Sequence record: OX090893
DNA length: 64,000 bases
Reading direction: 5' to 3' (one strand)
Origin: Escherichia phage vB_Eco_PATM
In this document: in pieces, positions 3,851 to 24,805 of the stretch
How positions within the stretch are numbered: position 1 is the first letter of the stretch
How the letters are laid out: each line of letters opens with the position of its first letter
Made by a program: the position numbers and the translations under genes
Notes under the pieces: model-generated
The model's database searches: none
What the model was told of the DNA's origin: nothing
Seen by the model: the letters and a program-made list of their open reading frames with translations, nothing else

Positions 3851-4822
3851 TCACCATTTTGTATGGTTAGTCAAAAGTTGACGATGTTGAATCCAACCAC
3901 AGAAGTTTCCACTCCACAAACGATGTTTACGATCCATGTGTGTAATACCTTCTTCCCAAGAAGTAGGGAACGGAGGAATATTAATACCACCTTTCTGTTG
4001 TTTTAATCCTGACAAATCCATTTCTTTCATTGGCGTTGCCTGGTGTTCAAACGGAGATGCATGTACCTTTTGTCCAGACAGCAAACGAGAATAGATATCC
4101 AATGCTTTATCTTTAGTATCATTCAACTTACGATAACTTACCTGAGCGCAACAAGAAGCTGAAATAGCTTTTGCTTCATCTTCTGTCAACATTTTCTCGT
4201 TGGAGAAGGTTTCACCCAAGAAATAACGGATCATACCAGTTTCTGGATCTCGATCACGATTAACGTAAGGTGTATGCCACTCCCCTGGGAAAAGAAGATA
4301 TGGTTCAGAAGATTCATACAGTTTTTTAATTTCTTTAGCAAGAGCCTCAATAGTAGGATCTGCATCAGCATCTACGCGCAACCACAAGAAGTTTTCTAAT
4401 TCTGTAGTGGTTACTACAGTCTTCATACGCTGGAATGGTTCTAGTAGTCGGTTTGCAACCTGTTTATGATAACCAGCAAGGGCAAACTCTTCTGCAAAAC
4501 GTGCAGCACTTAGTGCAGCCAAGTCCCACCATTCTTTTGCAGTGTAACCTGCATCAATCAGGGCATCGTGATCTGTGCCTTTATCTTGCATACCTGGTTG
4601 GTTAGCACCAAAACGATAAGGACGTGCTGGAGATTGCCGTACCATTTCAATCAGAGTTTTAACAGGGATAGCTCGACTTGATGCAGCATTACGAGAAAAC
4701 AAACGATGCGTCATCAATTCAGAGTGAATGATTCGAGGATATTCAAGTTCAAAGGTAACAATATCCTTACCTTCAGATGTTTGAGAGTGTGCAATAATTT
4801 TTGCTGAAATAGAATCTGTCAT
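3851..4822 (-). CDS. thyX: Flavin-dependent thymidylate synthase (ThyX-like)
   Basis: 323 aa; THRLFSRNAASSRA matches the ThyX signature [R]HR-x7-S-x-R with a T for the first R; nucleotide-metabolism neighbourhood. Confidence 0.55.
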   Translation of the reverse strand: MTDSISAKIIAHSQTSEGKDIVTFELEYPRIIHSELMTHRLFSRNAASSRAIPVKTLIEMVRQSPARPYRFGANQPGMQDKGTDHDALIDAGYTAKEWWDLAALSAARFAEEFALAGYHKQVANRLLEPFQRMKTVVTTTELENFLWLRVDADADPTIEALAKEIKKLYESSEPYLLFPGEWHTPYVNRDRDPETGMIRYFLGETFSNEKMLTEDEAKAISASCCAQVSYRKLNDTKDKALDIYSRLLSGQKVHASPFEHQATPMKEMDLSGLKQQKGGINIPPFPTSWEEGITHMDRKHRLWSGNFCGWIQHRQLLTNHTKW

Positions 4823-4831
4823 TATTTCTCC

Positions 4832-5536
4832 TTAAGGTAGTAAAATACTTTCAATTTCTTCCCACTGATTATCTAAACCAGTGATAATTACATTAGGAAG
4901 TTTCTTTAACTCTTCCAAGTATGGATCTTCGTAAATAGTATTGAAATATATTTTCAACGTTTCATCTGGAAACAGGACAAGATTTTCAGCCCTATCATCA
5001 ATAGTTACGTCGCAAGGCAATAAGTATTTTTCTTTTGTTGCGAAAAAACCATTACCAGATGTTCTACTAAAATCCACTTTATCTAAAGACCGTGTTACGT
5101 GTCTATATTTAGAACTAAGGTGTCCACCCTTAGTGTGGCTTGCTATAGATATATTAGCTCCATTTGCAATTATACGATGAACAACATCTGTACTATTAGG
5201 TACTACTCCCATAGTATCATATAGATGTTGGTTATCCCAAAAAGAGTAAGGATCTACACCAAATTGCTTTTTAAAATCAGGGAAATATTTCGTAATATCA
5301 TAATGCACAGTTTTATGTGTATTATCAAATTTGATATTAGATCTACTTACCGCATTTAACCAATTTAACCACTCTATATCCGCAGGAGCTATTACTAAAT
5401 CCCAATCACATACTAGACGCATTATTTCTCCTGTTATAACATTTTCTACACATTGTTTCGTAAATGTCTTCTCCCCCAATAACAATCTGTTCTTTAGAGT
5501 CGATAAGTCTAGCATTGAAAATAGCTTTTCTTCCAC
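4832..5536 (-). CDS. Hypothetical protein; annotated start overlaps tdk, true start probably internal (around 5515 or 5422)
   Basis: 234 aa ORF; 5' 130 nt overlap the thymidine kinase gene, so a downstream Met is more likely. Confidence 0.4.
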   Translation of the reverse strand: MEEKLFSMLDLSTLKNRLLLGEKTFTKQCVENVITGEIMRLVCDWDLVIAPADIEWLNWLNAVSRSNIKFDNTHKTVHYDITKYFPDFKKQFGVDPYSFWDNQHLYDTMGVVPNSTDVVHRIIANGANISIASHTKGGHLSSKYRHVTRSLDKVDFSRTSGNGFFATKEKYLLPCDVTIDDRAENLVLFPDETLKIYFNTIYEDPYLEELKKLPNVIITGLDNQWEEIESILLP

Positions 5537-5969
5537 ATTTACAAATGCTTTTCAATTCTGTAATTGAATCTGCTATGGCTAATAACCGTTCAGAACCTTC
5601 AAACAATTCTGTAGCAAAATCTGTTTTAAGTCCATAGCAGAATACAGGAATATCGTAATTATCTACCACATCTCCAAGAATGTCAACCATATCTTTAGTT
5701 AGGAATTGTGATTCATCTACAAATACTGCATCTACTGGATTTTCTTTAAGCTGTGTATAAATTTCCAGCATATCTTCTTTTGTTTTAACTGGTTTTGCTT
5801 CCTCTTTAATACCTATCCTAGAAGCAATAGCACAACCAGATCTGGTATCTAAAGCTGAAGTTAAAAGAAGAACTTTCATATTTCTTTCTTTATAGTTCCA
5901 AGCTGTTTGTAGAAGATGTGTGCTTTTACCACTGTTCATCGGACTATATCGGAAATAAAGTTTAGCCAT
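5406..5969 (-). CDS. tdk: Thymidine kinase
   Basis: 187 aa; P-loop SPMNSGKST near N-terminus and C-terminal zinc ribbon CKCG...CRKC typical of type II thymidine kinase. Confidence 0.85.
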   Translation of the reverse strand: MAKLYFRYSPMNSGKSTHLLQTAWNYKERNMKVLLLTSALDTRSGCAIASRIGIKEEAKPVKTKEDMLEIYTQLKENPVDAVFVDESQFLTKDMVDILGDVVDNYDIPVFCYGLKTDFATELFEGSERLLAIADSITELKSICKCGRKAIFNARLIDSKEQIVIGGEDIYETMCRKCYNRRNNASSM

Positions 5970-6014
5970 ATTTTCTCCTCTAACGCTCCCGTTTGTGGGA
6001 GCGATAATACTTTA

Positions 6015-6590
6015 TTATTTCTCTTCGTCAAGAAGAATTTTTACTATTTGTTTTCTTCGCTTACTTACTGTACTTTCTGGTGAAATTCCGCGCTTCGTTA
6101 GCCAATTTTTATCCTTTTTAGACTGGCATAAAGCTATCGCTTCCTTCTCCGCTTTTGCTTCCCTGAATGTCATATCGTGCTTGTCAGCATAAGCCAAGAT
6201 AGCGTTACACTGCTTACAAACTACACGCAGGTCGTCTTCTGTTACATACAATAGGCGTAAAACAAAACTTGGGATATCTTCATAACAGGTTAATGTACCT
6301 GCTGCATTAATATGGTCTACTTGAAAGTCTTTCATACCTCCTGTATGTCCACACAATTCACATTTACAATTCCAAACCTGTTTCGGTTTGCCTGTTTTCT
6401 TATCTAAAACTACATTGCCATCTTTATCCAATCTATCGGCTTTAAATCGTACAGATTGGATCTTTTTTATCTTATTCGGGTGTCTCACCCATGCCTTCCT
6501 CAAGCAACCCCTTAAGTATGTATAAAAGGCTGCTTGAGTTTTCCAAGGTGTTCCATCTCCCCAAATAACTTTAGGTTCTTTATTTTCCAA
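6015..6590 (-). CDS. Putative HNH-type zinc-finger nuclease-like protein
   Basis: 191 aa; CELCGH...QVDHINAAG...N...CKQCN pattern resembles an HNH zinc-finger core; weak. Confidence 0.4.
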   Translation of the reverse strand: MENKEPKVIWGDGTPWKTQAAFYTYLRGCLRKAWVRHPNKIKKIQSVRFKADRLDKDGNVVLDKKTGKPKQVWNCKCELCGHTGGMKDFQVDHINAAGTLTCYEDIPSFVLRLLYVTEDDLRVVCKQCNAILAYADKHDMTFREAKAEKEAIALCQSKKDKNWLTKRGISPESTVSKRRKQIVKILLDEEK

Positions 6591-7198: not shown

Positions 7199-8161
7199 TT
7201 AAATTCCAATAACAGTGTTTACACGCTTCTCTTTGCTACGCAAATTAACACGTCCACGAGACAGGCTATTACATGATGTGCATCTTAGCACTTGGAATGT
7301 ACTAACCGCTGTTGTGTAAACCTTACCAGGAACAACTTCAAGGTGCTCTTTACCGCAACGAGGACAACGAAGTTTTTCATCGTCATAGAATGCAGATACG
7401 TTAGGATGTTGTGGAATCCATGCACGAAGTTTGATGTAAAGATCTCTAAGAGAAACAACATCACCATCATTGTATGTTTGCATACGGAAGAAGGCATGTC
7501 TATCTCCTTCACAACATGCTTTCCACAAAGGAAAACCTTCATTATCAAGTTTAAAGTTTTCTGTATCAAAATACAAACACATTTCTTTAAGCGCATTAGA
7601 AGGTAGTGCAAACTGCTTCTTAGCTGCCTTGAGTGTATCAATTACAACATAATGTGATGGTGGCTCCATACCGTGAAAAGCAAAACGTTGGTTAATATAA
7701 GCCTTATCAAACTTAATACCGTTGTGCGCGATCACAATATCTGCATCGTCAAGCAAGTGCCAGAGATCTTGACATAATTCCCAATCATCTGTATGATCTA
7801 TGTCAAACAAAGGGTAATTGCTAAGGTTCTTACCTTCTACTTCCCCTGTTTCTAAATCAGCAGATGAATAGGAAAGCAAGTAACCTCGACGAATAACTTG
7901 TTCAGGTGCAATAAAGGCTTTGAAACGTGAGAAGCTATACACAATCTCCGGTGCTGTCTCTACGTCAATAATTTTAATTACTGGCCCACCTTTATCTTGC
8001 GGAGCACCACGATGTGGTGAATTTACACGAGCTAAGTAATCATTTACTGTGCTCTTCTTAGTAGAACTTCCCAACACCTCTTGTGCAATCTTACGCGAAG
8101 AATAACCTTGTGCTTTCATAGATACAATCAAGGCTTTCTGTTCGTCTGTTAATTTACTCAA
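7199..8161 (-). CDS. DnaQ-like 3'-5' exonuclease with N-terminal HTH
   Basis: 320 aa; N-terminal HTH-like AQGYSSRKIAQEV; Exo I IIDVETAP, Exo II AHNGIKFD, Exo III-like YNDGD; C-terminal CxxC...CxxC. Confidence 0.5.
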   Translation of the reverse strand: MSKLTDEQKALIVSMKAQGYSSRKIAQEVLGSSTKKSTVNDYLARVNSPHRGAPQDKGGPVIKIIDVETAPEIVYSFSRFKAFIAPEQVIRRGYLLSYSSADLETGEVEGKNLSNYPLFDIDHTDDWELCQDLWHLLDDADIVIAHNGIKFDKAYINQRFAFHGMEPPSHYVVIDTLKAAKKQFALPSNALKEMCLYFDTENFKLDNEGFPLWKACCEGDRHAFFRMQTYNDGDVVSLRDLYIKLRAWIPQHPNVSAFYDDEKLRCPRCGKEHLEVVPGKVYTTAVSTFQVLRCTSCNSLSRGRVNLRSKEKRVNTVIGI

Positions 8162-10781: not shown

Positions 10782-11504
10782 TTAAGCAATGATTGCTGCG
10801 ATATTAGGTTTAACAAAGGTAGATGGTTTCATAATTTTACCTTTGTCATCAAAGAATACGTACACCTTTTGAACTTCGTTATATACAGCATGTACCCCAG
10901 TATAAGAACCTTCTGCACGATCTTTGCTTCGCATCTCGATAGCATCGCACTCTTTTTCAAGAGCTTCAATAATATCCTTAGTTTCCCAAATAGCCAGGAG
11001 TTGCTTCTTGGTAGGATACTTGGACTCATTGCTATTCAACACTTCACGCATAACCTTCTTCTCGTTATAAACAGAACGCACCAAAGTATCTCGTGCCATA
11101 CGGGTAAGTGTAAGAGACATTAAGGCAAATTGCAAGTCATTTTCTACCATTTTATCAAATTCAATGATAACATCGTAGATGTTTTCTGCCAGAACATCTC
11201 CTGTCGGCATTTCCAGAGCTTTATCAACACCTTCTTTACCAAAGAACATAAACGCCAGGTAGGATGCTACCACAAAAATATCTGCTGCTGCATCAAGTAA
11301 TTCAACGTGATCATTTTCCTGTGCTGCTGCTTGGAACTCTTTAAGTTCTTCTCGTACAAAAGAAAGTTGAGCTTCAAACATCTCTTGAGTAAATTCTGGA
11401 GTTACTCCACCACGTGCCTTAGCATTCCAAGCAACAATTTGATCGGCAGCTTTGATAAAGAAGCTATTGTCCACTTTTACTTGTTTGAAAAAATTCTCGA
11501 TCAT
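10782..11504 (-). CDS. Hypothetical protein (240 aa), possibly all-alpha NTP pyrophosphohydrolase-like
   Basis: Acidic helical stretch ELLDAAADIFVVASY reminiscent of MazG/dUTPase-like EExxE/D sites; speculative. Confidence 0.35.
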   Translation of the reverse strand: MIENFFKQVKVDNSFFIKAADQIVAWNAKARGGVTPEFTQEMFEAQLSFVREELKEFQAAAQENDHVELLDAAADIFVVASYLAFMFFGKEGVDKALEMPTGDVLAENIYDVIIEFDKMVENDLQFALMSLTLTRMARDTLVRSVYNEKKVMREVLNSNESKYPTKKQLLAIWETKDIIEALEKECDAIEMRSKDRAEGSYTGVHAVYNEVQKVYVFFDDKGKIMKPSTFVKPNIAAIIA

Positions 11505-11513
11505 TGTTTCTCC

Positions 11514-11693
11514 TTATTTAAAATATTGTTCTAACAAAACACTAATGCGAACTACCGATTCGCCCATATACGCCCCAGCACAGAGGAAAACAACAAATCT
11601 ACAAAAATTGCAGTACCATTTGTCCACTGGAAACGAGGCTAACATTATAATTGCAATAGCAATTAACATCATAAGAACTGTTACTAATACCAT
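11514..11693 (-). CDS. Small membrane protein (about 59 aa, two hydrophobic segments)
   Basis: Start at 11693 follows RBS AAGAGG on minus strand; VLVTVLMMLIAIAIIMLASF and FVVFLCAGAY hydrophobic stretches. Confidence 0.35.
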   Translation of the reverse strand: MVLVTVLMMLIAIAIIMLASFPVDKWYCNFCRFVVFLCAGAYMGESVVRISVLLEQYFK

Positions 11694-11701
11694 ATTACCT
11701 C

Positions 11702-12865
11702 TTACTCTGCTGGTTCCCAAGTACCTGGAATCATCTTACGTACACGTACCCCAACAGGCTTAGTAGGAATACCTTCGTCTGAAAATTCTTCGTACTCTAT
11801 TTCAACAAATTGACCAATAAGTGTCAAAGCATTTTCTTCTTTACGATAGTTAATGGATTCGTCTGAATCCTTACGCATCAGGAATTCGACTACTTTACCA
11901 TTTTCCATCTCTCCTGTCAATACCCCGTCACCATTTTTATCACGCTTTGCACTTACCACTTTAACTTCAAGCGTCTGACGTGGTTTACGTTTAATAACAT
12001 CATAAGAACGTTTATCAAACTCGTAAACACCTTTTGCATTACGATACACCACACCTTCCGCTTTCTCACGTAGAGCTTTTGCATAGAAAGCATCAAACTG
12101 CTCTTGGTTTTCAATGTACTCTGTATGTACTACACAAATAAGTTCATCTAAACCTTTATCTTCAACAACTTCTTTTAGAGCAGCCAAAACTTGAACCCTC
12201 TTCTCAAATGGTACAGATGCCACAGGAACATCATATACATAGTATTTAAGAAGCGGTGTGTTAGCATTATGCTTTTTCCACGCACTATTAATTTGTTGAA
12301 GGCTAAGGACACCCAAACCAGCAAAAACTTCACCGTCAAGAGGATGACCAACTACTTCTTTAATGAAGGTTGGAATTTCTTCCCAGTGAGGTGGAAGTTT
12401 ATATACCTCCCCAGCTTTAGATAAACATTCACCTTGCATGTTAATCATTGAACGTAGACCATTCAATTTATATTGTGCATAACCTGGGAACAAAACACGG
12501 TCAGCATAATCTTTATAATCCTGACATTTCATGGGTGTGGAAGGAACATGGTTTTCAGCTTCCTCTTTTGTTTTATAATACCCATTCTTAAGTTGCTTTG
12601 TCCATTTGGCAAGAGCTTCTATTTCAGCTTGTTCTTCTGCTGTTGTTTCATTGGAGCGACCAATATTTTTAGGTTCTGCCGTATAAGATTTGCTAGTGAT
12701 CTTTCCACCTAATTGACCATGAGCAACAGTTACAACACTACCTTCGGTATAGACTGACCACTGTTTAATTTTACCTGTAGAAGTTTTACCATATAATGTA
12801 GGATTAGTTTGTTTCATCTTTAACCTCCAGTTGCGAAAGAACCCATTTAGCCATTTCAATTTCAC
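11702..12865 (-). CDS. ATP-dependent polynucleotide ligase (probable DNA ligase); start probably at internal Met near 12817
   Basis: Nucleotidyltransferase motifs: I KLNGLR, IV EGVVYR, V DVIKRK, then a C-terminal OB-like region; about 370 aa. Confidence 0.6.
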   Translation of the reverse strand: MKLKWLNGFFRNWRLKMKQTNPTLYGKTSTGKIKQWSVYTEGSVVTVAHGQLGGKITSKSYTAEPKNIGRSNETTAEEQAEIEALAKWTKQLKNGYYKTKEEAENHVPSTPMKCQDYKDYADRVLFPGYAQYKLNGLRSMINMQGECLSKAGEVYKLPPHWEEIPTFIKEVVGHPLDGEVFAGLGVLSLQQINSAWKKHNANTPLLKYYVYDVPVASVPFEKRVQVLAALKEVVEDKGLDELICVVHTEYIENQEQFDAFYAKALREKAEGVVYRNAKGVYEFDKRSYDVIKRKPRQTLEVKVVSAKRDKNGDGVLTGEMENGKVVEFLMRKDSDESINYRKEENALTLIGQFVEIEYEEFSDEGIPTKPVGVRVRKMIPGTWEPAE

Positions 12866-13007
12866 CGTGTAGTCTGCCTAGTTCATAGGCATCATCAATA
12901 TTACCACCAGTGTAATCATCCACCATAAAGTAAGGATCTTCACTACTGTTAGGCGCGTTTGCAATTCTCGTTAGTTCTTCAATAAATGTCATAGTTAACC
13001 TTACCAA
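12804..13007 (-). CDS. Hypothetical small protein (67 aa)
   Basis: ORF; no motif. Confidence 0.3.
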   Translation of the reverse strand: MVRLTMTFIEELTRIANAPNSSEDPYFMVDDYTGGNIDDAYELGRLHGEIEMAKWVLSQLEVKDETN

Positions 13008-13225
13008 TTATACACAAGAGTTTGAATTTCTTCCATCAAATCTTCAAGATCTGTATCAACATATTCAGAAGATGTTGCCATAAAGTATGTAATCATTGTG
13101 AACCCTTCCGAAGAAAGGGCATCAAGGATATCATTAAACATATCTTCCATTTCAGTATTCTCACCAAATGAGAATAACATTTGTTGGTCTTCGCTTACAC
13201 CTTTAACATAGATAGCTGTACTCAT
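13001..13225 (-). CDS. Hypothetical small acidic protein (74 aa)
   Basis: ORF; no motif. Confidence 0.35.
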   Translation of the reverse strand: MSTAIYVKGVSEDQQMLFSFGENTEMEDMFNDILDALSSEGFTMITYFMATSSEYVDTDLEDLMEEIQTLVYNW

Positions 13226-13228
13226 ATA

Positions 13229-13549
13229 TTAATCCTTAAGACGTTCATTTAAATCTGCAATAACATCACCTAAATCTTCACATTCCAGCGTTAACTCTGA
13301 AACTTGTCCACTCAAATAACAAACTTCTTCATTTAGATCTGAAATAATGTTTTCTAATGAATCTACTTGGTCATCATATGAACGTTTTGTTTCTTCAAGT
13401 TCTTCCGTAAGATCATTAATCAAACGGAGCAAAGATAAGATATAACCGTCTCCTGTCTCGTTCCTCCACTCACTTCCGTAGCGATAAATAATAATTTCAC
13501 CATTATCGACTACTGTAAAATACTTACCTTCACCAGAATAAATTTCCAT
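13229..13549 (-). CDS. Hypothetical coiled-coil protein (106 aa)
   Basis: Heptad-like acidic sequence LINDLTEELEETKRSYDDQVDSLENIISDLNEEV. Confidence 0.4.
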   Translation of the reverse strand: MEIYSGEGKYFTVVDNGEIIIYRYGSEWRNETGDGYILSLLRLINDLTEELEETKRSYDDQVDSLENIISDLNEEVCYLSGQVSELTLECEDLGDVIADLNERLKD

Positions 13550-13558
13550 AAACTCTCC

Positions 13559-13963
13559 TTATTGTAGCTTAAGTGAACTGCGAAGACGTTCCTCTTGCTG
13601 ATCACGAATATGTTGTGGAACCTCATGAATTGAATCGTTACCGTGCCTATTCTCCACAACTAAAGAAATAACTTGATAACCAAACTCTTCGGCAAGAGTT
13701 AAATAAGGTTTAAGTTCTTTTTCTGTAGTAGAGGTATTAGAAACAATAATCTTTTCAACACCATACTGCATATATTTTTGTACTTTGACACGACACCATT
13801 GGTGTGCTTTATGGATATTCTCTTGTTTCCACTCATACACACCATCTTCAGTGTAGTGGTATTGATCTGCCTCACAAATAGGCCAATGATTTTCAGAGAT
13901 AATTTCTGCTACTGTAGATTTACCTGCACCTGAAACACCACGTAAAATGATAAGTTGTTTCAT
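13559..13963 (-). CDS. P-loop nucleotide kinase (polynucleotide 5'-kinase-like)
   Basis: 134 aa; Walker A GVSGAGKST at residues 9-17; small kinase fold like the kinase domain of polynucleotide kinases; directly abuts the ligase-like gene. Confidence 0.55.
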   Translation of the reverse strand: MKQLIILRGVSGAGKSTVAEIISENHWPICEADQYHYTEDGVYEWKQENIHKAHQWCRVKVQKYMQYGVEKIIVSNTSTTEKELKPYLTLAEEFGYQVISLVVENRHGNDSIHEVPQHIRDQQEERLRSSLKLQ

Positions 13964-14896
13964 TTAGCCTCCAAAGAAGTTTTCTATTTCTTTACGTCGC
14001 TCTTGTGGATCTAGAGCAGCCCATTGAACCTTCGTAAAGTTATTTCGAAGCCATTCTAGCAAAGTATAATATTCTTCGTCAACAATTTGTTTAGCATTGT
14101 TTGGGTTGTCCCAAATCATATCCCACTTCTTATTGCCACCACGCATAAGGAACTTCTTAGCAAGATAGTATGGTGACTTAATCTTTAAGAGTAAGTTAAA
14201 CGGATAGTTTGTTTCACGAACAACAAAGCCTTCGTGTCTACAATGTTTAGACATTTCAACAACATCTGAAAATTTAATCATCGGATAAACTTCAGGACGT
14301 TTAAATTTTGTAATAGATGCAATCCCATCAAGAACACCTTCAGGTAACATGAAACTTGTCCCGTCAAGATTTTGAATTCTTGCTCCAATTAAGTATGCGC
14401 CTGGTTCTTCTTCGACAATATGTGGATCAGAAGGATCACAGATTTCAAAAAGGAAAGTTGCTTTTGCACTTTCTGTCCACTTAATGAAATACTCTATGTC
14501 ATCACACTCGGAAACAATACGGTTCTTGGCAATAGTTGCAAAGTCTGATTCTAGGCTCCCTGTTGTTGATACAACAAGTTTCCCTTTGTACACACCTACA
14601 GATGCCATAAAACCGTTTACTTTACGGACAGCATCTACAATTTCGTCTGCTGGAAGATCTGTACCATTTTCAAAACGATTAAAGATTTTAGTAAAAGGCC
14701 AAATAACAACATTGTCTTCTGAGTCAACAACCAACCCACGACAATCTAGAAGTCGTTTGTCAACGTTCCACAAATTATCCCAGAATACATTGTTTTTGTA
14801 TTTAAGCACAGCAAGACCAGCATACTCTCCAGATTTAACTTCTTTTTTATGCACTAAACCTTTTACAATCAGGTCATCACAATTGAACTTAGCCAC
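13964..14896 (-). CDS. RNA-ligase-like nucleotidyltransferase (Rnl/Trl1-type)
   Basis: 310 aa; motif I KVNG, motif IV EGFVVR, motif V LLKIK; KxNG is the Trl1/Rnl1-type variant. Confidence 0.55.
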   Translation of the reverse strand: MAKFNCDDLIVKGLVHKKEVKSGEYAGLAVLKYKNNVFWDNLWNVDKRLLDCRGLVVDSEDNVVIWPFTKIFNRFENGTDLPADEIVDAVRKVNGFMASVGVYKGKLVVSTTGSLESDFATIAKNRIVSECDDIEYFIKWTESAKATFLFEICDPSDPHIVEEEPGAYLIGARIQNLDGTSFMLPEGVLDGIASITKFKRPEVYPMIKFSDVVEMSKHCRHEGFVVRETNYPFNLLLKIKSPYYLAKKFLMRGGNKKWDMIWDNPNNAKQIVDEEYYTLLEWLRNNFTKVQWAALDPQERRKEIENFFGG

Positions 14897-14897
14897 C

Positions 14898-15449
14898 TTA
14901 ATCTCCTTTGATTATCTTATGATGGTCTACAACAACAATATCACGCTTATCCATAATAGAGATGATTTCGTCAAAATGCAAGATTTTCCCGTGTGCATCC
15001 CAACCAACATCCAACATCTTCCCATACAAATGGTCAGGGAATGATCCGTGAGAGTGTCCGTGTAGCATGATTGATCCATGCCCTTGTTTATTCCAGGCAG
15101 CCATAGGGTAATGGCTTAAGACGAAAAACAGCTTCTGATATTTCACTTCGTCATAATAAACCACTTCTCCATACTCTGCAAGCACTTTTCTGTGTTTACT
15201 GTAATCATGGTTTCCAACACAGTAAGTAATATCCCCTTGGAGACGGGAAGCAATCTTACGGGTATCTTCTTCAGTCCCGAAACAGAAGTCCCCAAGATGG
15301 TACATCTTTACTCCTGGTGTTGTGGCACATTTATTCCATGCTTCGATCAGTGCTTCTGTCATATGCTCCATATCTTCCCACGGGCGATATTCAGGAGCAA
15401 ACTCTCGGATACGTTTGTGCATAAAATGCAAATCACTTGTAATAAACAT
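14898..15449 (-). CDS. Calcineurin-like metallophosphoesterase
   Basis: 183 aa; DLHFMH, GDFCFG, GNHD, HGHSH metallophosphatase motifs in canonical order. Confidence 0.7.
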   Translation of the reverse strand: MFITSDLHFMHKRIREFAPEYRPWEDMEHMTEALIEAWNKCATTPGVKMYHLGDFCFGTEEDTRKIASRLQGDITYCVGNHDYSKHRKVLAEYGEVVYYDEVKYQKLFFVLSHYPMAAWNKQGHGSIMLHGHSHGSFPDHLYGKMLDVGWDAHGKILHFDEIISIMDKRDIVVVDHHKIIKGD

Positions 15450-15811
15450 TAGTATAATCCCTCGCTGAATAGTTCACTGTTGTGACCATTTCTTTCGTAG
15501 TTAATTTGTTTGGCGTTATCTGCAATGATATAAGCATCTTTTCGACTCCACCAATTATAATACTGATCAATAAACCCTTGATTATCAGGTAAGCAAAACA
15601 GCTTATCGATCAATCCTGCATCTTTTAAAACATTAAGTTGTGCAGATAGTACAGGATTTGCATGCCTAACACAAGGAATAATTAACTCTTCACCATTGTT
15701 GAGAATATACTTATTCGCAGCGCAGACTATAACACGTTGAGCATAGTGATCCTCACCAATCCAGGTAAGAGGTTGGTAACAAATATCATGTTGATTAGTA
15801 GCGCACATCAA
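15449..15811 (-). CDS. Hypothetical protein (120 aa)
   Basis: ORF adjacent to the phosphoesterase; no motif. Confidence 0.4.
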   Translation of the reverse strand: MMCATNQHDICYQPLTWIGEDHYAQRVIVCAANKYILNNGEELIIPCVRHANPVLSAQLNVLKDAGLIDKLFCLPDNQGFIDQYYNWWSRKDAYIIADNAKQINYERNGHNSELFSEGLY

Positions 15812-15966
15812 TTTTCTCCATACTCTTTTAGTCTATCAGCGAAAAAACTGTAATCAGGAAGTAAAAGATCATTACTCGTATCGCTCCAGTTCTCTTCCTC
15901 TCTATAGATAAAATGCCCTTCATCCTCTTCTTGCTCTGACCAAACTGAATAATGCATAATACCTAC

Positions 15967-16341
15967 TTAATAGTTAACACGTTTAATTTCAACACCATAG
16001 GATGAAATAAAATTTTCCTTAGCTAACATATATTTACCAGCAGCAGAAGGATTTGATGTATGAACATAGATAGTTTTAAGAGCATCCCATTCACCCGCGT
16101 ACAACATACATTCTACATCCAAGAACGCATGATAGCCTTCTTGATCTTCCCCAAGATCATTATCGAAGTGTATTTCTGATATATTGTTGAAATTATCTTC
16201 ATCTGAAACAAAAGATGACCAATCCCCAAAAGATTTTAACCAAATGGCATCCTCATAACCATAATCTTTAGGATCTCTTAAATCGTCTAACCAAAGAATT
16301 TTAGCCACTATCAACCTCCTTCCTGTTTCTCTTCTTTCCAA
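15967..16341 (-). CDS. Hypothetical protein (124 aa)
   Basis: ORF; N-terminal ILWLDDLRDP; no assignable motif. Confidence 0.4.
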   Translation of the reverse strand: MERRETGRRLIVAKILWLDDLRDPKDYGYEDAIWLKSFGDWSSFVSDEDNFNNISEIHFDNDLGEDQEGYHAFLDVECMLYAGEWDALKTIYVHTSNPSAAGKYMLAKENFISSYGVEIKRVNY

Positions 16342-16502
16342 GTTTTACCTTTATCTACCAATTTCTTAGAAACAGCAAATCTTTCCCCATTGATATAAAA
16401 CAAATAAAGAATAAAGGATTTTCCTATAGTTACAGTATCTACTACTTCTACACGCTTCACACCTTGCATGTATTTGGCTTTACCTGAATAAATAAGAAAC
16501 AT
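16311..16502 (-). CDS. Hypothetical small protein (63 aa)
   Basis: ORF in early block. Confidence 0.3.
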   Translation of the reverse strand: MFLIYSGKAKYMQGVKRVEVVDTVTIGKSFILYLFYINGERFAVSKKLVDKGKTWKEEKQEGG

Positions 16503-18344: not shown

Positions 18345-19238
18345 ATGAAAGTTAGTATTCTACATGGTGTTGGCTGTTATGTTACTGATGTAGACGTTAA
18401 AGTCTTTACATTCTCTGGTGGAGAACAACATGTTCAACTAGACACGAATCTATCAGGTTTCAATCATGCTACAGACAGAATCTTACTCTCTTTAGAAGTA
18501 AGATCTGCTAAAGACTTGATGACTTTGGTTATGACTAAGAATGCATTGGACAATATGCTATATCATAAACCATATTGTGTTGATTTGCTCATGTTGTATG
18601 TGCCATATGCACGACAAGACAGAGTGTGTGAACCTGGGGAAGCATTCGGAGTTAAAGCATTTGCTTCTATAATTAATTCATTAAATTTCTCACGTGTTAT
18701 CGTTGCTGATCCACATAGTGATGTTACTCCAGCAGTGTTTGACAGACTCTGTGTAATACCTCAAGAAGAGATTGCTTACGAAACTTTAAAGTGGAAGTTA
18801 CGTATGGAGAATTTTGCTCTTGTTAGTCCTGATGGTGGTGCTCTTAAGAAAATATTTAAATTATCTAAGAAAATGTCTTTAGATGTGTTCTGTGCAGAGA
18901 AGGTTAGAGATACTGCAACAGGTGCTATTGTTCGTACAGACATTTCTGTACAGGATTTCAATAAGCGTAACCTGATGATCGTAGATGATATCTGTGATGG
19001 TGGTAGAACTTTTATTGAGTTGGCTAAAGTGCTACGTGCTCGTAACGCAGGTAAGATTGAGTTATATGTTACACACGGTATCTTTTCTAAAGGTCTTAAA
19101 GAGTTAAGTGAGCACTTTGACTGCATTCATTCTCTTAATGTGTGGGAAGATAACATCCAAGAAGATTCCGGTGTTCTTGTTAAGAATCAGTCAGATTTGC
19201 AACAACAAATTGTATCTCCATACGTGTGGAATTTTTAA
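18345..19238 (+). CDS. Ribose-phosphate pyrophosphokinase (PRPP synthetase)-like enzyme; candidate ADP-ribose pyrophosphate synthetase of an NAD+ reconstitution pathway
   Basis: 297 aa; PRPP-binding loop LMIVDDICDGGRT; directly followed by a NAMPT-like gene. Confidence 0.65.
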   Translation: MKVSILHGVGCYVTDVDVKVFTFSGGEQHVQLDTNLSGFNHATDRILLSLEVRSAKDLMTLVMTKNALDNMLYHKPYCVDLLMLYVPYARQDRVCEPGEAFGVKAFASIINSLNFSRVIVADPHSDVTPAVFDRLCVIPQEEIAYETLKWKLRMENFALVSPDGGALKKIFKLSKKMSLDVFCAEKVRDTATGAIVRTDISVQDFNKRNLMIVDDICDGGRTFIELAKVLRARNAGKIELYVTHGIFSKGLKELSEHFDCIHSLNVWEDNIQEDSGVLVKNQSDLQQQIVSPYVWNF

Positions 19239-19309: not shown

Positions 19310-21043
19310 ATGAATATTTTTGCACCTTTTGCTACTGATTGGTATAAACCTGGTCACAAGCAGATGTACAACCAAAATACAAAACTCATTTTCTCTAATT
19401 TAACTCCTCGTAATGATAAAAACTTTGCACACTATGCAGATCGTGAAGCACGTGGTGTGATTGTTTTAGGTATTCGTCGAGCAGTCACTGATGCTCTTGT
19501 AACTATGTGGGACAGCTTCTTTAAAATGTCTCGTAGTGCAGCAGTAAATAAATTTTATCGTATGTCTAAAAATGCATTAGGTGCTTCTGCTCCTTCTGCT
19601 GAATGTTGGGGAGAATTGCACGATTTAGGTTATCTTCCGCTAGAAGTTCGATCTCTGCCAGAAGGTGTTTTGTGTCCTATTGGTGTTCCTGTGTTTACTG
19701 TGCATAATACTTTAGAAAAATTCTTTTGGTTAACTAACTATGTGGAAACACTCTTGTCAGATGAAACTTGGAAGACAATGACTAATGCCACAGCAGCTTT
19801 TCAGTATAAGCGTATCGCTATGGCGTATGCGATGGCAACGTGTGATAACATTGATCACGTTAATTTCCAGTGTCATGACTTTAGCCTACGTGGTTTAAGC
19901 AATATCGAAGATGGTTATAAGAGTGGTATCGCTCATTTGGCATCTTTCACAGGTACAGATAATATTCTGGCTATTGAAACTGTGCATGATTACTATGGTA
20001 TTGATTATGATCAGTTTGTTGCAGGTTCTATTCCGGCAACAGAACATTCAGTAGCAACGACTAACATTGGAGCTATTGTTGAAGATCTAAAGGAACATTT
20101 TCCACGTCTTAAAGCTGATGTAGATTGGCTTCGTTATGTAGCAGAAAAAGAGTTTCTTCGTCGTTATATTGAAGAAATTGTTCCAGAAGGTTTTTGTTCA
20201 TATGTAGCAGATTCTTATGATTACTGGACTGTATTGACTAACATTCTGGTAGAGTTGAAAGATTCCATCATGTCACGAAATGGTCGTCTTGTTATTCGTC
20301 CAGATTCAGGAGATCCGGTTAAAGTTGTTGCAGGATACAATGTTGAATCTTTTGATAACTATGAAGATCTTTTAAATAATGGTATTGCTACAGCCACTGA
20401 AGTAGTACATTTGGCTGATGTTAATAAGTATTACAATGTTCTTCAGGATTGCAGTGTTGCTGATTGTATTGATGAAACTTATGAGATTCCTTATTGTGAA
20501 GCAGTAGGTTCTATTCAAATCCTTTGGGAAGTGTTTGGTGGTACTATCAACCGAAAAGGCTACAAGGTTCTTGATCAGCACATCGGTATGATTTATGGTG
20601 ATTCTATTACTGTTGAACGAGAACACGAGATCTTACGCCGACTGAAGAAGAAAGGTTTTGCAGCTTCCAATATTGTATTTGGTGTTGGTAGTTATACTTA
20701 TCAGTTCAATACACGAGATACTTTTGGTTTTGCTGTTAAAGCAACAGGTAGTATCATCGGTGAACACGAAATTTTGGTAAGTAAAGAGCCTAAAACTGAT
20801 CCTGGTAAACGCTCTGCAAAAGGTTTTATTAAGGTTGTTAAGGATACAAATGGTAAACTTTCTCTTGTGGATAATCTTTCTTTTAAAGATATCCAAGATG
20901 AAGACAATGAGTTAAAAGTTATCTTCAGGGATGGTACGGTTATTACACCACAAGTAGAAGGACGTGATGAAACATTTACTGATATCCGCAACCGTGTTGA
21001 TGTAGAGGTTCTTCGTACTATGGGAACCATCCAGGTTGACTAA
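19310..21043 (+). CDS. nadV: Nicotinamide phosphoribosyltransferase (NAMPT/NadV)-like enzyme; candidate nicotinamide ADP-ribose transferase
   Basis: 577 aa; length and gene pairing with the PRPP-synthetase-like gene fit phage NadV-family enzymes; no single diagnostic motif verified by eye. Confidence 0.6.
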   Translation: MNIFAPFATDWYKPGHKQMYNQNTKLIFSNLTPRNDKNFAHYADREARGVIVLGIRRAVTDALVTMWDSFFKMSRSAAVNKFYRMSKNALGASAPSAECWGELHDLGYLPLEVRSLPEGVLCPIGVPVFTVHNTLEKFFWLTNYVETLLSDETWKTMTNATAAFQYKRIAMAYAMATCDNIDHVNFQCHDFSLRGLSNIEDGYKSGIAHLASFTGTDNILAIETVHDYYGIDYDQFVAGSIPATEHSVATTNIGAIVEDLKEHFPRLKADVDWLRYVAEKEFLRRYIEEIVPEGFCSYVADSYDYWTVLTNILVELKDSIMSRNGRLVIRPDSGDPVKVVAGYNVESFDNYEDLLNNGIATATEVVHLADVNKYYNVLQDCSVADCIDETYEIPYCEAVGSIQILWEVFGGTINRKGYKVLDQHIGMIYGDSITVEREHEILRRLKKKGFAASNIVFGVGSYTYQFNTRDTFGFAVKATGSIIGEHEILVSKEPKTDPGKRSAKGFIKVVKDTNGKLSLVDNLSFKDIQDEDNELKVIFRDGTVITPQVEGRDETFTDIRNRVDVEVLRTMGTIQVD

Positions 21044-21789: not shown

Positions 21790-21865
21790 GGTTCCATAGC
21801 TCACTGACGAGAGCGCACACCTCATAAGTGTCGAGGGCAGGGATTGTAACCCTGGGGAACCACCA
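21790..21865 (+). tRNA. tRNA, anticodon CAT (Met/Ile2-type), atypical T-loop
   Basis: Hand-folded cloverleaf: acceptor GGTTCCA/GGGAACC, D-stem GCTC/GAGC, anticodon loop CTCATAA, encoded CCA; T-loop ATTGTAA is non-canonical. Confidence 0.55.
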
Positions 21866-21896
21866 TTTAAAAGGAGGTGCTATGCATCTCCTATAT

Positions 21897-21982
21897 GCAA
21901 GTGTGGTGGAATTGGTGATACACATTGTGCTTAAAACGCAACGCTTAAATGCTTGAGGGTTCGAATCCCTCCACTTGCACCA
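21897..21982 (+). tRNA. tRNA-Leu (anticodon TAA)
   Basis: Acceptor GCAAGTG/CACTTGC, anticodon loop CTTAAAA, long variable arm, T-arm GAGGGTTCGAATCCCTC, encoded ACCA. Confidence 0.75.
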
Positions 21983-21984
21983 AC

Positions 21985-22090
21985 GCCTAGTAGGGTATTT
22001 GGTAATTCCGAGGCCATCAAAGCCTGAAAAATATGTTAGACCACTTTGTCTAACTAAATACGAAATATGGTTCGATTCCATAACTAGGCT
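21985..22090 (+). tRNA. Atypical tRNA-like element (106 nt; perfect acceptor and T-arm but about 30 nt extra internal sequence)
   Basis: Acceptor GCCTAGT/ACTAGGC and T-arm TATGG-TTCGATT-CCATA are canonical, but the interior has a 7-bp hairpin GTTAGAC-N6-GTCTAAC and no clean anticodon arm; no encoded CCA. Confidence 0.35.
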
Positions 22091-22124
22091 TCAATTTAAA
22101 TAATAATTTTTTAGTAAAAATATC

Positions 22125-22153
22125 TTGACATTTACTTAGTTTTTTGTTATAGT
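22125..22153 (+). promoter_or_regulatory. Sigma70-like promoter (TTGACA-17-TATAGT)
   Basis: Near-consensus hexamers 11 nt upstream of the next tRNA-like gene. Confidence 0.55.
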
Positions 22154-22164
22154 TACTGTGAAAA

Positions 22165-22246
22165 CGGGGTGTATCTCACCTGACTTCTAATCAGGCGTTA
22201 ACCGAGTAATTGGAGTATGCAGGTTCGAATCCTGTCACCCCGACCA
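22165..22246 (+). tRNA. Atypical tRNA-like gene, anticodon loop CTTCTAA (TCT, Arg-like); D-arm not foldable by eye
   Basis: Acceptor CGGGGTG/CACCCCG, perfect anticodon arm CCTGA-CTTCTAA-TCAGG, T-arm GCAGG-TTCGAAT-CCTGT, encoded CCA; only 7 nt between acceptor and anticodon stem, 23 nt variable region. Confidence 0.4.
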
Positions 22247-22310
22247 AAAAAGTTTTAAAAACTACTTGACAAGCAAGATAGTTTTATGTTAGATTTAAAG
22301 TATGATAACG

Positions 22311-22400
22311 GGAAGGTAGGGCGCAGCGGTGCGCAACCAGGTTTGAACCCTGGCCCATTGTAGCGATACGGTGATGGTTCGACTCCATTATCTTCCTCCA
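22311..22400 (+). tRNA. tRNA-Ser (anticodon TGA)
   Basis: Acceptor GGAAGGT/ATCTTCC, anticodon arm CCAGG-TTTGAAC-CCTGG, long variable arm, encoded CCA. Confidence 0.75.
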
Positions 22401-22418
22401 AATTCGCTTAGGAGCTTT

Positions 22419-22571
22419 ATGAATTATAAAACTATTGGACAGGTTGTTACCGGAGTTAAGATTGTAAATAATAAAGTTGTTTATGAGTATTCTAATCTTC
22501 AACAATCTGAAGATGGTAAGAATATTCGTATGGTAAAATCAGAACAAAAAGATTCCGGTTGTTTTGAATAA
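22419..22571 (+). CDS. Small hypothetical protein (50 aa) between tRNA genes
   Basis: ATG at 22419 preceded by RBS AGGAG; the longer ORF-track version starts inside the tRNA. Confidence 0.3.
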   Translation: MNYKTIGQVVTGVKIVNNKVVYEYSNLQQSEDGKNIRMVKSEQKDSGCFE

Positions 22572-22579
22572 TTAAGAAC

Positions 22580-22665
22580 GGTAGATTGGTGAAATGGTAG
22601 CCACAACAGTTTGCTAAACTGTCGTCGGAAACGGCGTGTAGGTTCAAGTCCTACATCTACCGCCA
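22580..22665 (+). tRNA. tRNA-Ser (anticodon GCT)
   Basis: Acceptor GGTAGAT/ATCTACC, anticodon arm ACAGT-TTGCTAA-ACTGT, long variable arm, T-arm GTAGG-TTCAAGT-CCTAC, encoded CCA. Confidence 0.75.
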
Positions 22666-22715
22666 AGTTATCTTTAATGTAGCTTGTTGCTCTTAGTTGC
22701 TTGGTGTAACTTTTT

Positions 22716-22790
22716 GGAAGGATGGCTGCAACCATCTTACTTTAATAGAGTAAACTTTCGGCAGATGGCCCCCACCATCTTACCGATACC
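22716..22790 (+). repeat. Two related hairpins sharing CCATCTTAC (GGATGG-CTGCAA-CCATCTTAC and AGATGG-CCCCCA-CCATCTTAC)
   Basis: Seen directly in the inter-tRNA spacer; function unknown. Confidence 0.4.
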
Positions 22791-22835
22791 TCATAGTTAG
22801 TGGTGCGAACACTGGCTATTTTAAAGATAATTTAT

Positions 22836-22911
22836 ACATCGTTAGCTTAGTTGGTAGAGCAAGGGGCTTTTAACTCCAAGGTCGAAGGTTCGAATCCTTC
22901 ACGATGTACCA
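22836..22911 (+). tRNA. tRNA-Lys (anticodon TTT)
   Basis: Acceptor ACATCGT/ACGATGT, D-loop AGTTGGTA, anticodon loop CTTTTAA, T-arm GAAGG-TTCGAAT-CCTTC, encoded CCA. Confidence 0.7.
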
Positions 22912-22916
22912 AACAC

Positions 22917-23003
22917 GTAGGTATCGCATAGCGGCAATTGCTGGAGACTGTAAATCTCCTGCCCTTCGGGGCTTCGTTGGTTCGAGTCCAACTACCTGCA
23001 CCA
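22917..23003 (+). tRNA. tRNA-Tyr (anticodon GTA)
   Basis: Acceptor GTAGGTA/TACCTGC, anticodon arm GGAGA-CTGTAAA-TCTCC, long variable arm, encoded CCA. Confidence 0.7.
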
Positions 23004-23010
23004 AATTAAA

Positions 23011-23095
23011 GATGGATTGGCCTAGTGGTTGGGCGACGGACTGTTAATCCGTGAACGAAAGTTCTAGCAAGGTTCAAATCCTTGATCCATCGCCA
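23011..23095 (+). tRNA. tRNA with anticodon GTT (Asn) and an unusually long hairpin variable arm
   Basis: Acceptor GATGGAT/ATCCATC, anticodon arm ACGGA-CTGTTAA-TCCGT, variable hairpin GAAC-GAAA-GTTC, T-arm CAAGG-TTCAAAT-CCTTG, encoded CCA. Confidence 0.5.
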
Positions 23096-23099
23096 AATA

Positions 23100-23167
23100 G
23101 TGCTTGTAGAGTTAATAGAAACCTCTAGAATTTTCTAGAATTGTAGGTATCAAATCCTACCAAGCAA
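23100..23167 (+). pseudogene. Degenerate tRNA-like element (anticodon arm replaced by the palindrome TCTAGAATTTTCTAGA)
   Basis: Acceptor-like TGCTTG/CAAGCA, D-stem AGAG/CTCT and a T-arm-like GTAGG-TATCAAAT-CCTAC, but the central hairpin has a 4-nt loop and no anticodon loop; no CCA. Confidence 0.3.
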
Positions 23168-23174
23168 ATATTTT

Positions 23175-23249
23175 GCTCCTATCGTATAACGGCTATTACG
23201 GTTGCCTTGTAAGCAACTTATCAGGGTTCGAGTCCTTGTGGGAGCACCA
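23175..23249 (+). tRNA. tRNA-Thr (anticodon TGT)
   Basis: Acceptor GCTCCTA/TGGGAGC, anticodon arm GTTGC-CTTGTAA-GCAAC, T-arm CAGGG-TTCGAGT-CCTTG, encoded CCA. Confidence 0.7.
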
Positions 23250-23270
23250 ATTTAACTCTAAAGGAGTGTA

Positions 23271-23595
23271 TGTGACAGAAAAAGAGTTAGAGAAATATTT
23301 TAATATCAATGTTTTCGATGGTTTTGATGATATTGAAGATGTTGAAAGATATTATGAAGTAGAGTTAGATAAGGATAACATTGTAATTCTTTCTGCCACT
23401 TATGATTGTGCATATTATGAAGGTGAATCTCACGTTTATTTTTATGATATGAAAACATCTTTGTTTTATGAAGTACACGCATATCATTGTTCTTGTTATG
23501 GTTTAGAAGGTCAGTGGGAACCTGAAGAAATAGGTGATTTGGACTTTACTATTGCATATCTAAACAGACGTGGTGCATCTACTATTTTAAAATAA
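23271..23595 (+). CDS. Hypothetical protein (about 108 aa) inside the tRNA island; probable GTG start
   Basis: RBS AAGGAG then GTG at 23271; the longer ORF-track version starts inside tRNA-Thr. Confidence 0.4.
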
Positions 23596-23609
23596 ATATC
23601 AAAAGCCTC

Positions 23610-23639
23610 TTGACAAAGGGGCTAATAATATGTTAGAGT
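23610..23639 (+). promoter_or_regulatory. Sigma70-like promoter (TTGACA-18-TAGAGT)
   Basis: Hexamers upstream of tRNA-Gly. Confidence 0.45.
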
Positions 23640-23650
23640 AATATTGTTAA

Positions 23651-23725
23651 GCGGGTATAGTGTTAATGGTAGCATATGAGGTTTCCACCCTCCAGGTGCA
23701 GGTTCAAGTCCTGTTACTCGCTCCA
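23651..23725 (+). tRNA. tRNA-Gly (anticodon TCC)
   Basis: Acceptor GCGGGTA/TACTCGC, anticodon loop TTTCCAC, T-arm GCAGG-TTCAAGT-CCTGT, encoded CCA. Confidence 0.7.
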
Positions 23726-23824
23726 AGATTATTTAAATGGAATCGCTAGAGAAAATTTCTCTTTTCGCTCATGGTTTTCTCCTTCAAACTCTAGCGGTTC
23801 TTTTTAAGTGATTTTTAGTTTTAT

Positions 23825-23899: not shown

Positions 23900-23941
23900 A
23901 TTAATTGCATAGCATGAGTATTTCTCATTGGTTAAAAGGAG

Positions 23942-24307: not shown

Positions 24308-24308
24308 T

Positions 24309-24384: not shown

Positions 24385-24389
24385 AATTT

Positions 24390-24790: not shown

Positions 24791-24805
24791 AATTATTACA
24801 GATTG

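Follow-up and report, generated by a model that had tools for sequence, protein, structure and literature searches.

An ATP-dependent DNA ligase and an Rnl1/Trl1-type RNA ligase, both with asparagine in motif I, in Escherichia phage vB_Eco_PATM

Within a 64,000-nucleotide stretch of Escherichia phage vB_Eco_PATM (sequence record OX090893; the whole stretch is called the window below), positions 11702 to 14896 hold two ligase genes, both having Asn in place of the usual Asp in motif I (K-x-N-G). Our analysis indicates that one encodes a genuine ATP-dependent DNA ligase and the other an Rnl1/Trl1-type RNA-repair ligase, that the two are kin only at the superfamily level, and that Asn is a tolerated variant whose presence in both is coincidental. 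We assign this reading a probability of about 0.8; it draws on family placement, conservation, covariation and gene context. The original prediction had noted K-x-N-G in both genes, had described the enzymes as paralogous-looking and had seen in the double occurrence a reason to ask whether the DNA-ligase call is right. The motif was indeed found in both, as KLNGLR in the DNA ligase and KVNG in the RNA ligase, whereas the supposed resemblance and the doubt gave way under the comparisons reported here. The two genes and their relevant parts are the following.

11702-12817, minus strand: ATP-dependent DNA ligase, 371 amino acids, orthologue of phi92 gp091, with WGR-like N-terminal domain, nucleotidyltransferase (NTase) domain and OB domain
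12518-12817, minus strand: N-terminal DNA-binding domain of the DNA ligase (amino acids 1-100), homologous to the N-terminal domain of AsfvLIG
12452-12469, minus strand: motif I of the DNA ligase, K117-L-N119-G-L-R122, with the Asn119 codon AAT at 12461-12463
11756-11767, minus strand: P351-T-K-P354 of the DNA-ligase OB domain, at the place of the Arg that forms a salt bridge with the Asp of motif I
13964-14896, minus strand: Rnl1/Trl1-type ATP-dependent RNA ligase, 310 amino acids, orthologue of phi92 gp096
14612-14623, minus strand: motif I of the RNA ligase, K92-V-N94-G, with the Asn94 codon AAC at 14615-14617

The DNA-ligase open reading frame (ORF) spans 11702-12865, up to a GTG at 12865; the start used here is the ATG at 12817, as in the annotation of phages phi92 and EmilieFrey.

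The DNA ligase contains one K-x-[DNH]-G, namely KLNGLR at amino acids 117-122, and the RNA ligase one KVNG, at amino acids 92-95. [quoted passage not shown] Both are true motif I and no chance tetrapeptides. For each protein, the 120 best homologs and the query made up a set of 121 sequences, reaching down to about 47% identity. Motif I Lys and Gly are invariant in both sets, and so is the Arg of KLNGLR among the DNA ligases. The third position of the motif is Asn in all RNA ligases (121/121); among the DNA ligases, it is Asn in 112/121 and Asp in 9/121.

The DNA-ligase gene product matches PF01068 with 43.8 bits (cut-off 26.2) and phrog_114 with E=7e-75. When 134 diverse members of this phage DNA-ligase family were scanned with Pfam, every one of them matched PF01068. 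The OB domain model PF14743 reaches 16.9 bits on the phage ligase (cut-off 28), yet 107/134 family members match it. NCBIfam gave sub-threshold DNA-ligase matches only, among them NF006592 with E=1e-19, below its cut-off. A search of the PDB with a profile of 41 family members returned 27 matches at E<=0.01, all 27 being ATP-dependent DNA ligases. AsfvLIG was the best of these (E=6e-24), aligned from residue 74, in its N-terminal domain, to the C-terminus, with K-R-N-G placed under K-L-N-G; Lig E and the ligases of Chlorella virus, P. marinus and T4 followed. The core of NTase and OB_2 domains is shared with the Chlorella virus ligase (2q2t) and Lig E (4d05/6gdr) at profile E values of 1e-15 to 3e-18, but these enzymes have KxDG, an R-F pair and no N-terminal domain.

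Structure comparison led to the same family. The AlphaFold2 model of the DNA ligase (mean predicted local distance difference test, pLDDT, 92.9) was matched by Foldseek in the PDB to closed, DNA-bound AsfvLIG complexes with a query-normalised TM-score (TMq) of 0.77-0.78 over about 410 columns, whereas ligases devoid of that N-terminal domain reached at most 0.61. In the viral structure library BFVD, the named entries among the 47 best matches are all DNA ligases (10/47 are nameless), and ranks 48-49 are taken by an NAD+-dependent DNA ligase and an mRNA guanylyltransferase; ligases of pithovirus-like viruses, a Solivirus and an abalone asfa-like virus give matches that span all or most of the length. 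The residues of motifs III, IIIa, IV and V show little or no variation (D161/E163, Y195/D196, E254/G255, K276/K278), and the motif VI Arg, R360, is conserved.

Because profile and fold matches fall only among ATP-dependent DNA ligases, the DNA-ligase call is right as far as computation can tell, and the Asn gives no ground to question it: AsfvLIG, the closest solved relative, is a proven DNA ligase with the same KxNG. Of the two proteins, whose joint grouping among standard ATP-dependent DNA ligases would have spoken against the original prediction, the DNA-ligase-like one does group firmly there; the other groups with Rnl1/Trl1 RNA ligases. As for its substrate, we infer that the DNA ligase most likely seals nicks in phage DNA, through adenylylation of Lys117, transfer of AMP to the 5'-phosphate and attack by the 3'-OH. 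The family occurs in 988 phage records, of which 100 are named Salmonella phages and 14 Felixounavirus. In the Felix O1-like phage finno, a ligase of the same family adjoins genes for DNA polymerase, dihydrofolate reductase and thymidylate synthase. The finno ligase is annotated as two overlapping 'DNA ligase' coding sequences of 219 nt and 1137 nt (4799-6092 of the compared stretch), perhaps the result of a wrongly called start, or of a frameshift, at the N-terminal domain.

The RNA ligase matches PF09511 with 53.6 bits (cut-off 28.3) and phrog_562 with E=4e-67; NCBIfam has no match for it. Searching the PDB with the single sequence gave nothing at E<=1, and a family profile was needed; it found T4 Rnl1 (2c5u) with E=3.9e-10. 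No match to Trl1 appeared at the sequence level in this family-profile search of the PDB. The alignment of the profile with T4 Rnl1 stops at phage residue 238 and T4 chain residue 250 (in native numbering, one less). Motifs I, III, IV and V are invariant (K92, E151, E222/G223, K238/K240), as are R53 and K70, which lie under T4 Rnl1 Arg54 and Lys75, the residues contacting the ATP gamma-phosphate. The nucleophilic Lys and the other catalytic motifs being kept in both phage proteins, the earlier remark that activity is plausible appears sound.

In the AlphaFold2 model of the RNA ligase (pLDDT 92.0), residues 242-307 form C-terminal helices. Foldseek ranks T4 Rnl1 and fungal Trl1-LIG about equally, with E of about 1e-11 to 1e-12 and TMq 0.57-0.68. 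With T4 Rnl1 (2c5u, 5tt6) the phage enzyme shares the adenylyltransferase domain and the N-terminal subdomain belonging to it, as well as motifs I, III, IV and V and the PF09511 assignment, and it is encoded beside end-healing genes. With Trl1-LIG (Rnl6; 6n0t, 6n67) it shares KxNG and motif IV EGFV[VI]R, having KVNG at 92 and EGFVVR at 222 where CthTrl1 has TLKENG and EGFVIR, and its fold matches Trl1-LIG (TMq 0.62-0.68) no less well than T4 Rnl1. For fungal Trl1-LIG, motif I is given as KxNG, and its Asn150 contacts waters of the catalytic Mn1 (PMC6379707), in agreement with the original prediction that the variant is known from Trl1-type RNA ligases. Unlike Trl1, the phage RNA ligase stands alone, unfused to a kinase or a 2H cyclic phosphodiesterase, and the kinase and the healing enzyme, here a metallophosphoesterase, are encoded by separate genes. 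The family was found in 749 phage records, 15 of them named Salmonella phages; Felixounavirus is outside its ten commonest names. Motif I of its relatives reads as follows.

Liucustia (Acinetobacter phage): KVNG
FV3: KKNG
Fusobacterium phage FNU2: KENG, in a 738-residue fusion annotated as a metallophosphoesterase
Streptomyces phage Comrade: KKDG
T4: KEDG

By these alignments, Asn is fixed in the clade of the phage RNA ligase and not universal among its wider relatives.

Could the Asn have been passed on within a single lineage? If the two ligases were recent paralogs, or had exchanged sequence, the residue would be shared by descent, and their position 1.1 kb apart on the same strand, their membership in the same enzyme superfamily and the common K-[LV]-N-G would fit such a history. 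An hhalign comparison of the two family profiles nevertheless gave a probability of 0.2% and E=0.35, out of register, with motif I not placed on motif I, which is what removes the paralogous look of the pair. They also belong to different Pfam families (PF01068 vs PF09511) with different appended domains, the RNA-ligase model matches AsfvLIG only with E of about 1e-4 and a TM-score of 0.37, and the Asn codons differ (AAT vs AAC). Recent common descent of the two has, in our judgement, next to no chance of being correct; the ligases are related only at the level of the covalent lysine nucleotidyltransferase superfamily. FV3 pairs a KLDG DNA ligase with a KKNG RNA ligase and phiMK a KLDG DNA ligase with a KVNG one, while in finno the DNA ligase has KLDG and no RNA ligase lies nearby. 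Since in FV3 and phiMK the DNA ligase thus has KxDG and the RNA ligase KxNG, Asn in both enzymes of one phage is best regarded as coincidence. The double occurrence is also unremarkable because about a third of the sampled DNA ligases, and nearly all of the RNA-ligase clade, have Asn.

The same pairings bear on another possibility, that the 'DNA ligase' belongs to an RNA-repair system and seals RNA or RNA-containing duplexes, its Trl1-like Asn marking this role. Its gene lies 1.1 kb from the RNA ligase and kinase genes; in Justusliebigvirus, Vequintavirus FV3, Klebsiella phage BIS47 and Pakpunavirus the ligase is found about 2-5 kb from RNA-repair genes; and 32/134 family members have a secondary Pfam match to PF09414 RNA_ligase. 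Sequence and fold, however, place the protein among DNA ligases only, with an OB domain and a DNA-encircling N-terminal domain like that of AsfvLIG. The finno ligase has its replicative neighbours and no RNA-repair genes within 5 kb, the phage distributions of the two families differ (988 vs 749 records), and Asn is not tied to the pairing, FV3 and phiMK having Asp. The syntenic phages are moreover relatives, so that the linkage can be inherited gene order. We consider an RNA-repair role of this enzyme very unlikely. Functional coupling as the meaning of the proximity was likewise set aside, given the replicative context in Felix O1-like phages and the kinship of the syntenic ones.

We return to the DNA ligase as an enzyme of phage DNA and to the exchange of Asp and Asn in its family. 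An exhaustive profile search yielded 3430 clusters (50% identity) at E<=1e-30, of which the best 150 representatives, nearly all full length with the N-terminal domain included, were tallied. Their motif I was read via hmmalign to the family hidden Markov model, a tally by regular expression being unreliable (18 without match). Asp was found at position 3 in 90 of these best 150, Asn in 54 and Glu in one. On a neighbor-joining tree, parsimony demands at least 24-26 Asp/Asn switches among 144 representatives (random placement: about 43). Going by this sample, Asn in motif I is a common, recurrent variant in the phage DNA-ligase family.

A structural rationale is offered by known ligases. Human LIG1 has a D570-R871 salt bridge, and L402 of AsfvLIG occupies the R871 position (Chen et al. 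2019); in LigIV, the carboxylate of the motif I Asp forms a salt bridge with an Arg of the OB domain when the clamp is closed, and the Asp is besides a candidate for binding metal (PMC6035275). T352 of the phage ligase aligns with AsfvLIG L402 and with the R of PRFP in the Chlorella virus ligase, and K353 follows under AsfvLIG Q403. Arg stands at this OB column in 28/90 Asp-type representatives and in 0/54 Asn-type ones (Fisher p=4e-7), and it is spread over 16 separate clades, every one of them Asp-type. In the next column, Lys is present in 28/54 Asn-type and 11/90 Asp-type sequences. Where the Arg partner is lost, as here with Thr352-Lys353, the negative charge would become dispensable and the Asn amide could fill the remaining hydrogen-bonding role; Asn would be tolerated because its predecessor's charge partner in the OB domain is missing. 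AsfvLIG offers a parallel, with Asn153 paired with Leu402/Gln403 and no Arg partner.

Several points weigh against this overall reading. Thr112 of the RNA ligase is aligned with Lys119 of T4 Rnl1, the essential motif Ia lysine of that enzyme; Thr112 (14561-14563, minus strand) is itself invariant in the RNA-ligase clade, within S-T-T-G-S. The phage RNA ligase further differs from T4 Rnl1 in having KVNG in place of KEDG, 310 in place of 374 amino acids and a shorter C-terminal helical region, in which the tRNA-specificity domain of T4 is not evidently conserved; owing to this shorter region, substrate specificity may differ from that of T4 Rnl1. Among the DNA ligases, the Asn share of 37% may overestimate the family-wide frequency, since the profile used for ranking was built on a clade rich in Asn. 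The neighbor-joining tree behind the switch count, made from sequences of 30% identity, is rough. The Fisher test of the Arg/Asp association ignores kinship, being without phylogenetic correction. No OB Arg is present in 62/90 Asp-type members either, so Arg loss permits Asn but does not dictate it. Finally, AsfvLIG N153D is known solely from combination mutants.

Loss of activity would be a different reason for an altered motif I: one or both Asn variants might be catalytically dead or impaired and kept for a non-enzymatic role, comparable to the tail-fibre attachment by T4 Rnl1. LigIV D275A abolishes nick sealing, Chlorella virus ligase D29A shows little or no activity on pre-adenylated substrate (both mutants were found in secondary mentions only), and the PHROG name bears a 'tail fiber attachment' label. 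Asn, though, is not Ala, and active Asn enzymes exist in AsfvLIG and Trl1; the other catalytic residues are invariant over hundreds of homologs, as purifying selection on the active site would have it. The literature search found no usable primary data on D-to-N mutants of T4 Rnl1 Asp101 or Chlorella virus ligase Asp29. A dead enzyme is, to our mind, highly implausible.

The opposite case, an Asn that is adaptive instead of near-neutral and alters ligase behaviour, through lower mismatch fidelity as in AsfvLIG or through metal dependence, deserves more credit but is still improbable. AsfvLIG is error-prone, and Chen et al. rank Asn153 and Leu211 among four residues important for catalytic efficiency; the phage enzyme has both, as N119 and L173, and Asn is kept across the phi92-like clade (112/121). 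In the same study, on the other hand, combination mutants including N153D brought no gain in fidelity or efficiency, and its authors concluded that the residues serve assembly of the complex and not discrimination of mismatches. At least 24 switches among 144 representatives speak for easy interchange, and the OB residues are unlike those of AsfvLIG (T-K vs L-Q).

With Asn taken as a tolerated variant, the kinship to AsfvLIG still extends well beyond motif I. The phage ligase shares with AsfvLIG (NP419L; PDB 6imj/6imk/6iml/6imn) the layout of N-terminal, NTase and OB domains, a full-length match of fold and profile, the K-x-N-G motif, Leu at the position of human Phe635 and the lack of Arg at the R871-equivalent OB position. 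Chen et al. 2019 singled out N153/L211/L402/Q403 as four 'unique' nick-site residues of AsfvLIG, L211 replacing human Phe635. N119 and the invariant L173, the equivalent of L211, match two members of this set, and T352/K353 stand in for L402/Q403. The enzymes differ in that sequence identity is about 21%, the OB pair is T352-K353 instead of L402-Q403, the phage N-terminal domain is shorter (about 100 vs 120 residues) and the host of the phage is a bacterium.

The N-terminal domain was also compared separately. A profile restricted to it retrieved from the PDB first AsfvLIG residues 69-111 (E=0.0015) and second the WGR-domain protein 2ra8 (E=0.0038); of the 74 listed homologs of the 2ra8 fragment, 71 carry PF05406. 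By hhalign, an alignment of 112 diverse N-terminal domains matched a WGR alignment across 60 columns with a probability of 95.6% and E=1.3e-8, against E of 0.04 or worse for reversed or shuffled controls. The Pfam WGR model (PF05406) does not match the N-terminal domain of the phage ligase even at E<=10, and it matches one of the 134 family members (E=0.007). These comparisons suggest that the domain, homologous to the N-terminal domain of AsfvLIG, is a WGR domain of divergent sequence. In AsfvLIG, Chen et al. had described it as a completely novel fold. Bacterial WGR-NT-OB_2 ligases were noted by Williamson & Leiros 2020 (PMC7470946), who treated AsfvLIG as unique, a single network node. The phage ligase has an N-terminal WGR-type domain in common with these bacterial enzymes, but its domain has diverged too far for the Pfam WGR model to recognise it and contains about ten inserted residues (KNxGKxNETT). 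A bacterial or phage origin of the ASFV ligase had already been inferred by Yutin & Koonin 2009, and our literature search found no published link between the AsfvLIG N-terminal domain and WGR.

A broader proposal can be made, tentatively and with the odds rather against it. The supposedly unique features of AsfvLIG, namely its 'novel-fold' N-terminal domain, Asn153 and Leu211, would be hallmarks of a phage WGR-domain ligase family of more than 3000 clusters (50% identity), from which asfarviruses and pithovirus-like giant viruses took their ligase; members that have given up the Asp-Arg salt bridge between domains, with KxNG and a non-Arg OB residue as here, would form a mechanistic subclass, possibly of low fidelity, as AsfvLIG is, in sealing nicks that are mismatched or damaged.

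As a separate observation, six metagenomic members of the family (P0244, P0270, P0285, P0294, P0311 and P0319; 706-785 amino acids) have a large insertion at motif I. It lies directly after the motif I Gly in five of the six (...K-L/I-D-G | C-F ... V-H-N | C-R...), and all four that were scanned with Pfam have an intein with a LAGLIDADG homing endonuclease.

The RNA ligase is accompanied by genes with a likely part in RNA repair. All genes of the DNA-ligase, RNA-ligase and cassette set are on the minus strand; besides the two ligases, they are the following.

10782-11504, minus strand: MazG-like nucleotide pyrophosphohydrolase (PF01503 E=3e-7; phrog_671)
between 12804 and 13549, minus strand: three small ORFs, between the kinase and DNA-ligase genes
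13559-13963, minus strand: P-loop kinase, 134 amino acids (PF13671 AAA_33 E=1.8e-10; phrog_2071 and phrog_505, polynucleotide kinase)
14898-15449, minus strand: calcineurin-like metallophosphoesterase, 183 amino acids (phrog_547 E=5e-55; PDB 1xm7 E=1.3e-6)
15449-15808, minus strand: conserved protein of 120 amino acids (phrog_839, function unknown), between the cREC and phosphoesterase genes
15967-16308, minus strand: protein with a cREC (cyclic-phosphate-processing receiver-like) domain (PF20274 cREC_REC E=3.9e-13), start as in EmilieFrey

The kinase resembles the T4 Pnkp kinase domain (1ly1) weakly (E=0.02), with the P-loop and the Asp of 'eaDQY' aligned, and is 42% identical to its FV3 orthologue; it is probably a 5'-OH polynucleotide kinase for end healing. 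The metallophosphoesterase, whose PF12850 match (E=3e-4) is below the Pfam cut-off, is a probable healing enzyme for 2',3'-cyclic phosphate or 3'-phosphate ends. NCBIfam has no match for it or for the cREC protein, which is 46% identical to FV3_00076, the neighbour of the FV3 RNA ligase. The MazG-like gene is orthologous to that of FV3. Phage FV3 has orthologues of every part of the cassette plus Sir2, and orthologous genes are also present in phiMK.

From homology and context we infer the role of the cassette, which most likely heals and seals tRNAs cut by host anticodon nucleases. The RNA ligase would act as its sealing enzyme, rejoining such tRNAs in company with the P-loop kinase, the metallophosphoesterase, the cREC protein and the MazG-like protein. 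A sirtuin-centred, predicted RNA-repair neighbourhood was described by Iyer, Burroughs, Aravind et al. 2022 (PMC9503650, section 3.7.3) in phage V5 (rV5) and Proteus phage Mydo. As there, a tRNA ligase, cREC, a nucleotide kinase and MazG, with a calcineurin-like phosphoesterase as an optional part, occur together here, but the defining sirtuin is absent from the window: no SIR2 Pfam match was obtained in 25 ORFs (432-21043), and tblastn with FV3 Sir2 was blank across the 64 kb. In FV3, Sir2 (7271-8032 of the compared stretch) sits between the cREC and MazG genes. The 120-residue protein (ORF 15449-15811), for which there is no Pfam match, was considered as a truncated Sir2 and rejected (BLASTP vs FV3 Sir2 E=1.3; phrog_839 profile length 253).

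Other genes were observed farther along the plus strand. Sixteen tRNA genes, including tRNA-Lys(UUU), lie at 21790-25106, 5-10 kb from the cassette. Shortly after the strand changes near 18 kb come a phosphoribosyl pyrophosphate (PRPP)-synthetase-like gene (18345-19238) and a nicotinamide/nicotinate phosphoribosyltransferase-like gene (19310-21043), together candidates for NAD+ salvage. The same pair follows the RNA ligase and kinase genes in Pakpunavirus phiMK.

The source phage is a phi92-like E. coli myophage (Justusliebigvirus, Stephanstirmvirinae). Its locus 11000-16500 is 98.7% identical in nucleotide sequence to that of phage outra and 97.8% to that of phi92; a coverage of 80% or more of this region is reached by 55 phage records. 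Five records that match the region at the nucleotide level bear 'Campylobacter phage' labels (e.g. C14, C11). C14 and C11 show 46-47% protein identity to the RNA ligase, equal to that of rV5-like phages such as FV3. This suggests that 'Campylobacter phage' records with these E. coli phage genes are mislabelled or contaminated.

Both ligase genes are ordinary members of known families, correctly annotated in dozens of near-identical phage genomes, and the RNA-repair cassette is of a type already described in rV5-like phages. Modest new points, drawn from sequence comparison, would be that KxNG is widespread in phage DNA ligases, that it does not occur alongside the OB Arg and that the AsfvLIG-type N-terminal domain is of WGR kind. 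Asn in motif I is a tolerated variant with characterised precedents in AsfvLIG for DNA and Trl1 for RNA, and KxNG is no curiosity of ASFV: roughly one in three of the representatives sampled from this very large family of phage ligases has it. Its strict absence wherever the OB Arg is kept provides a structural rule, open to testing, on when a carboxylate is required in motif I. The N-terminal domain of AsfvLIG, proposed as a drug target on account of its supposed uniqueness, appears to be a divergent WGR domain widespread in phages, and the phage ligases, which are easy to express, may serve as models of AsfvLIG or as new ligases for biotechnology.

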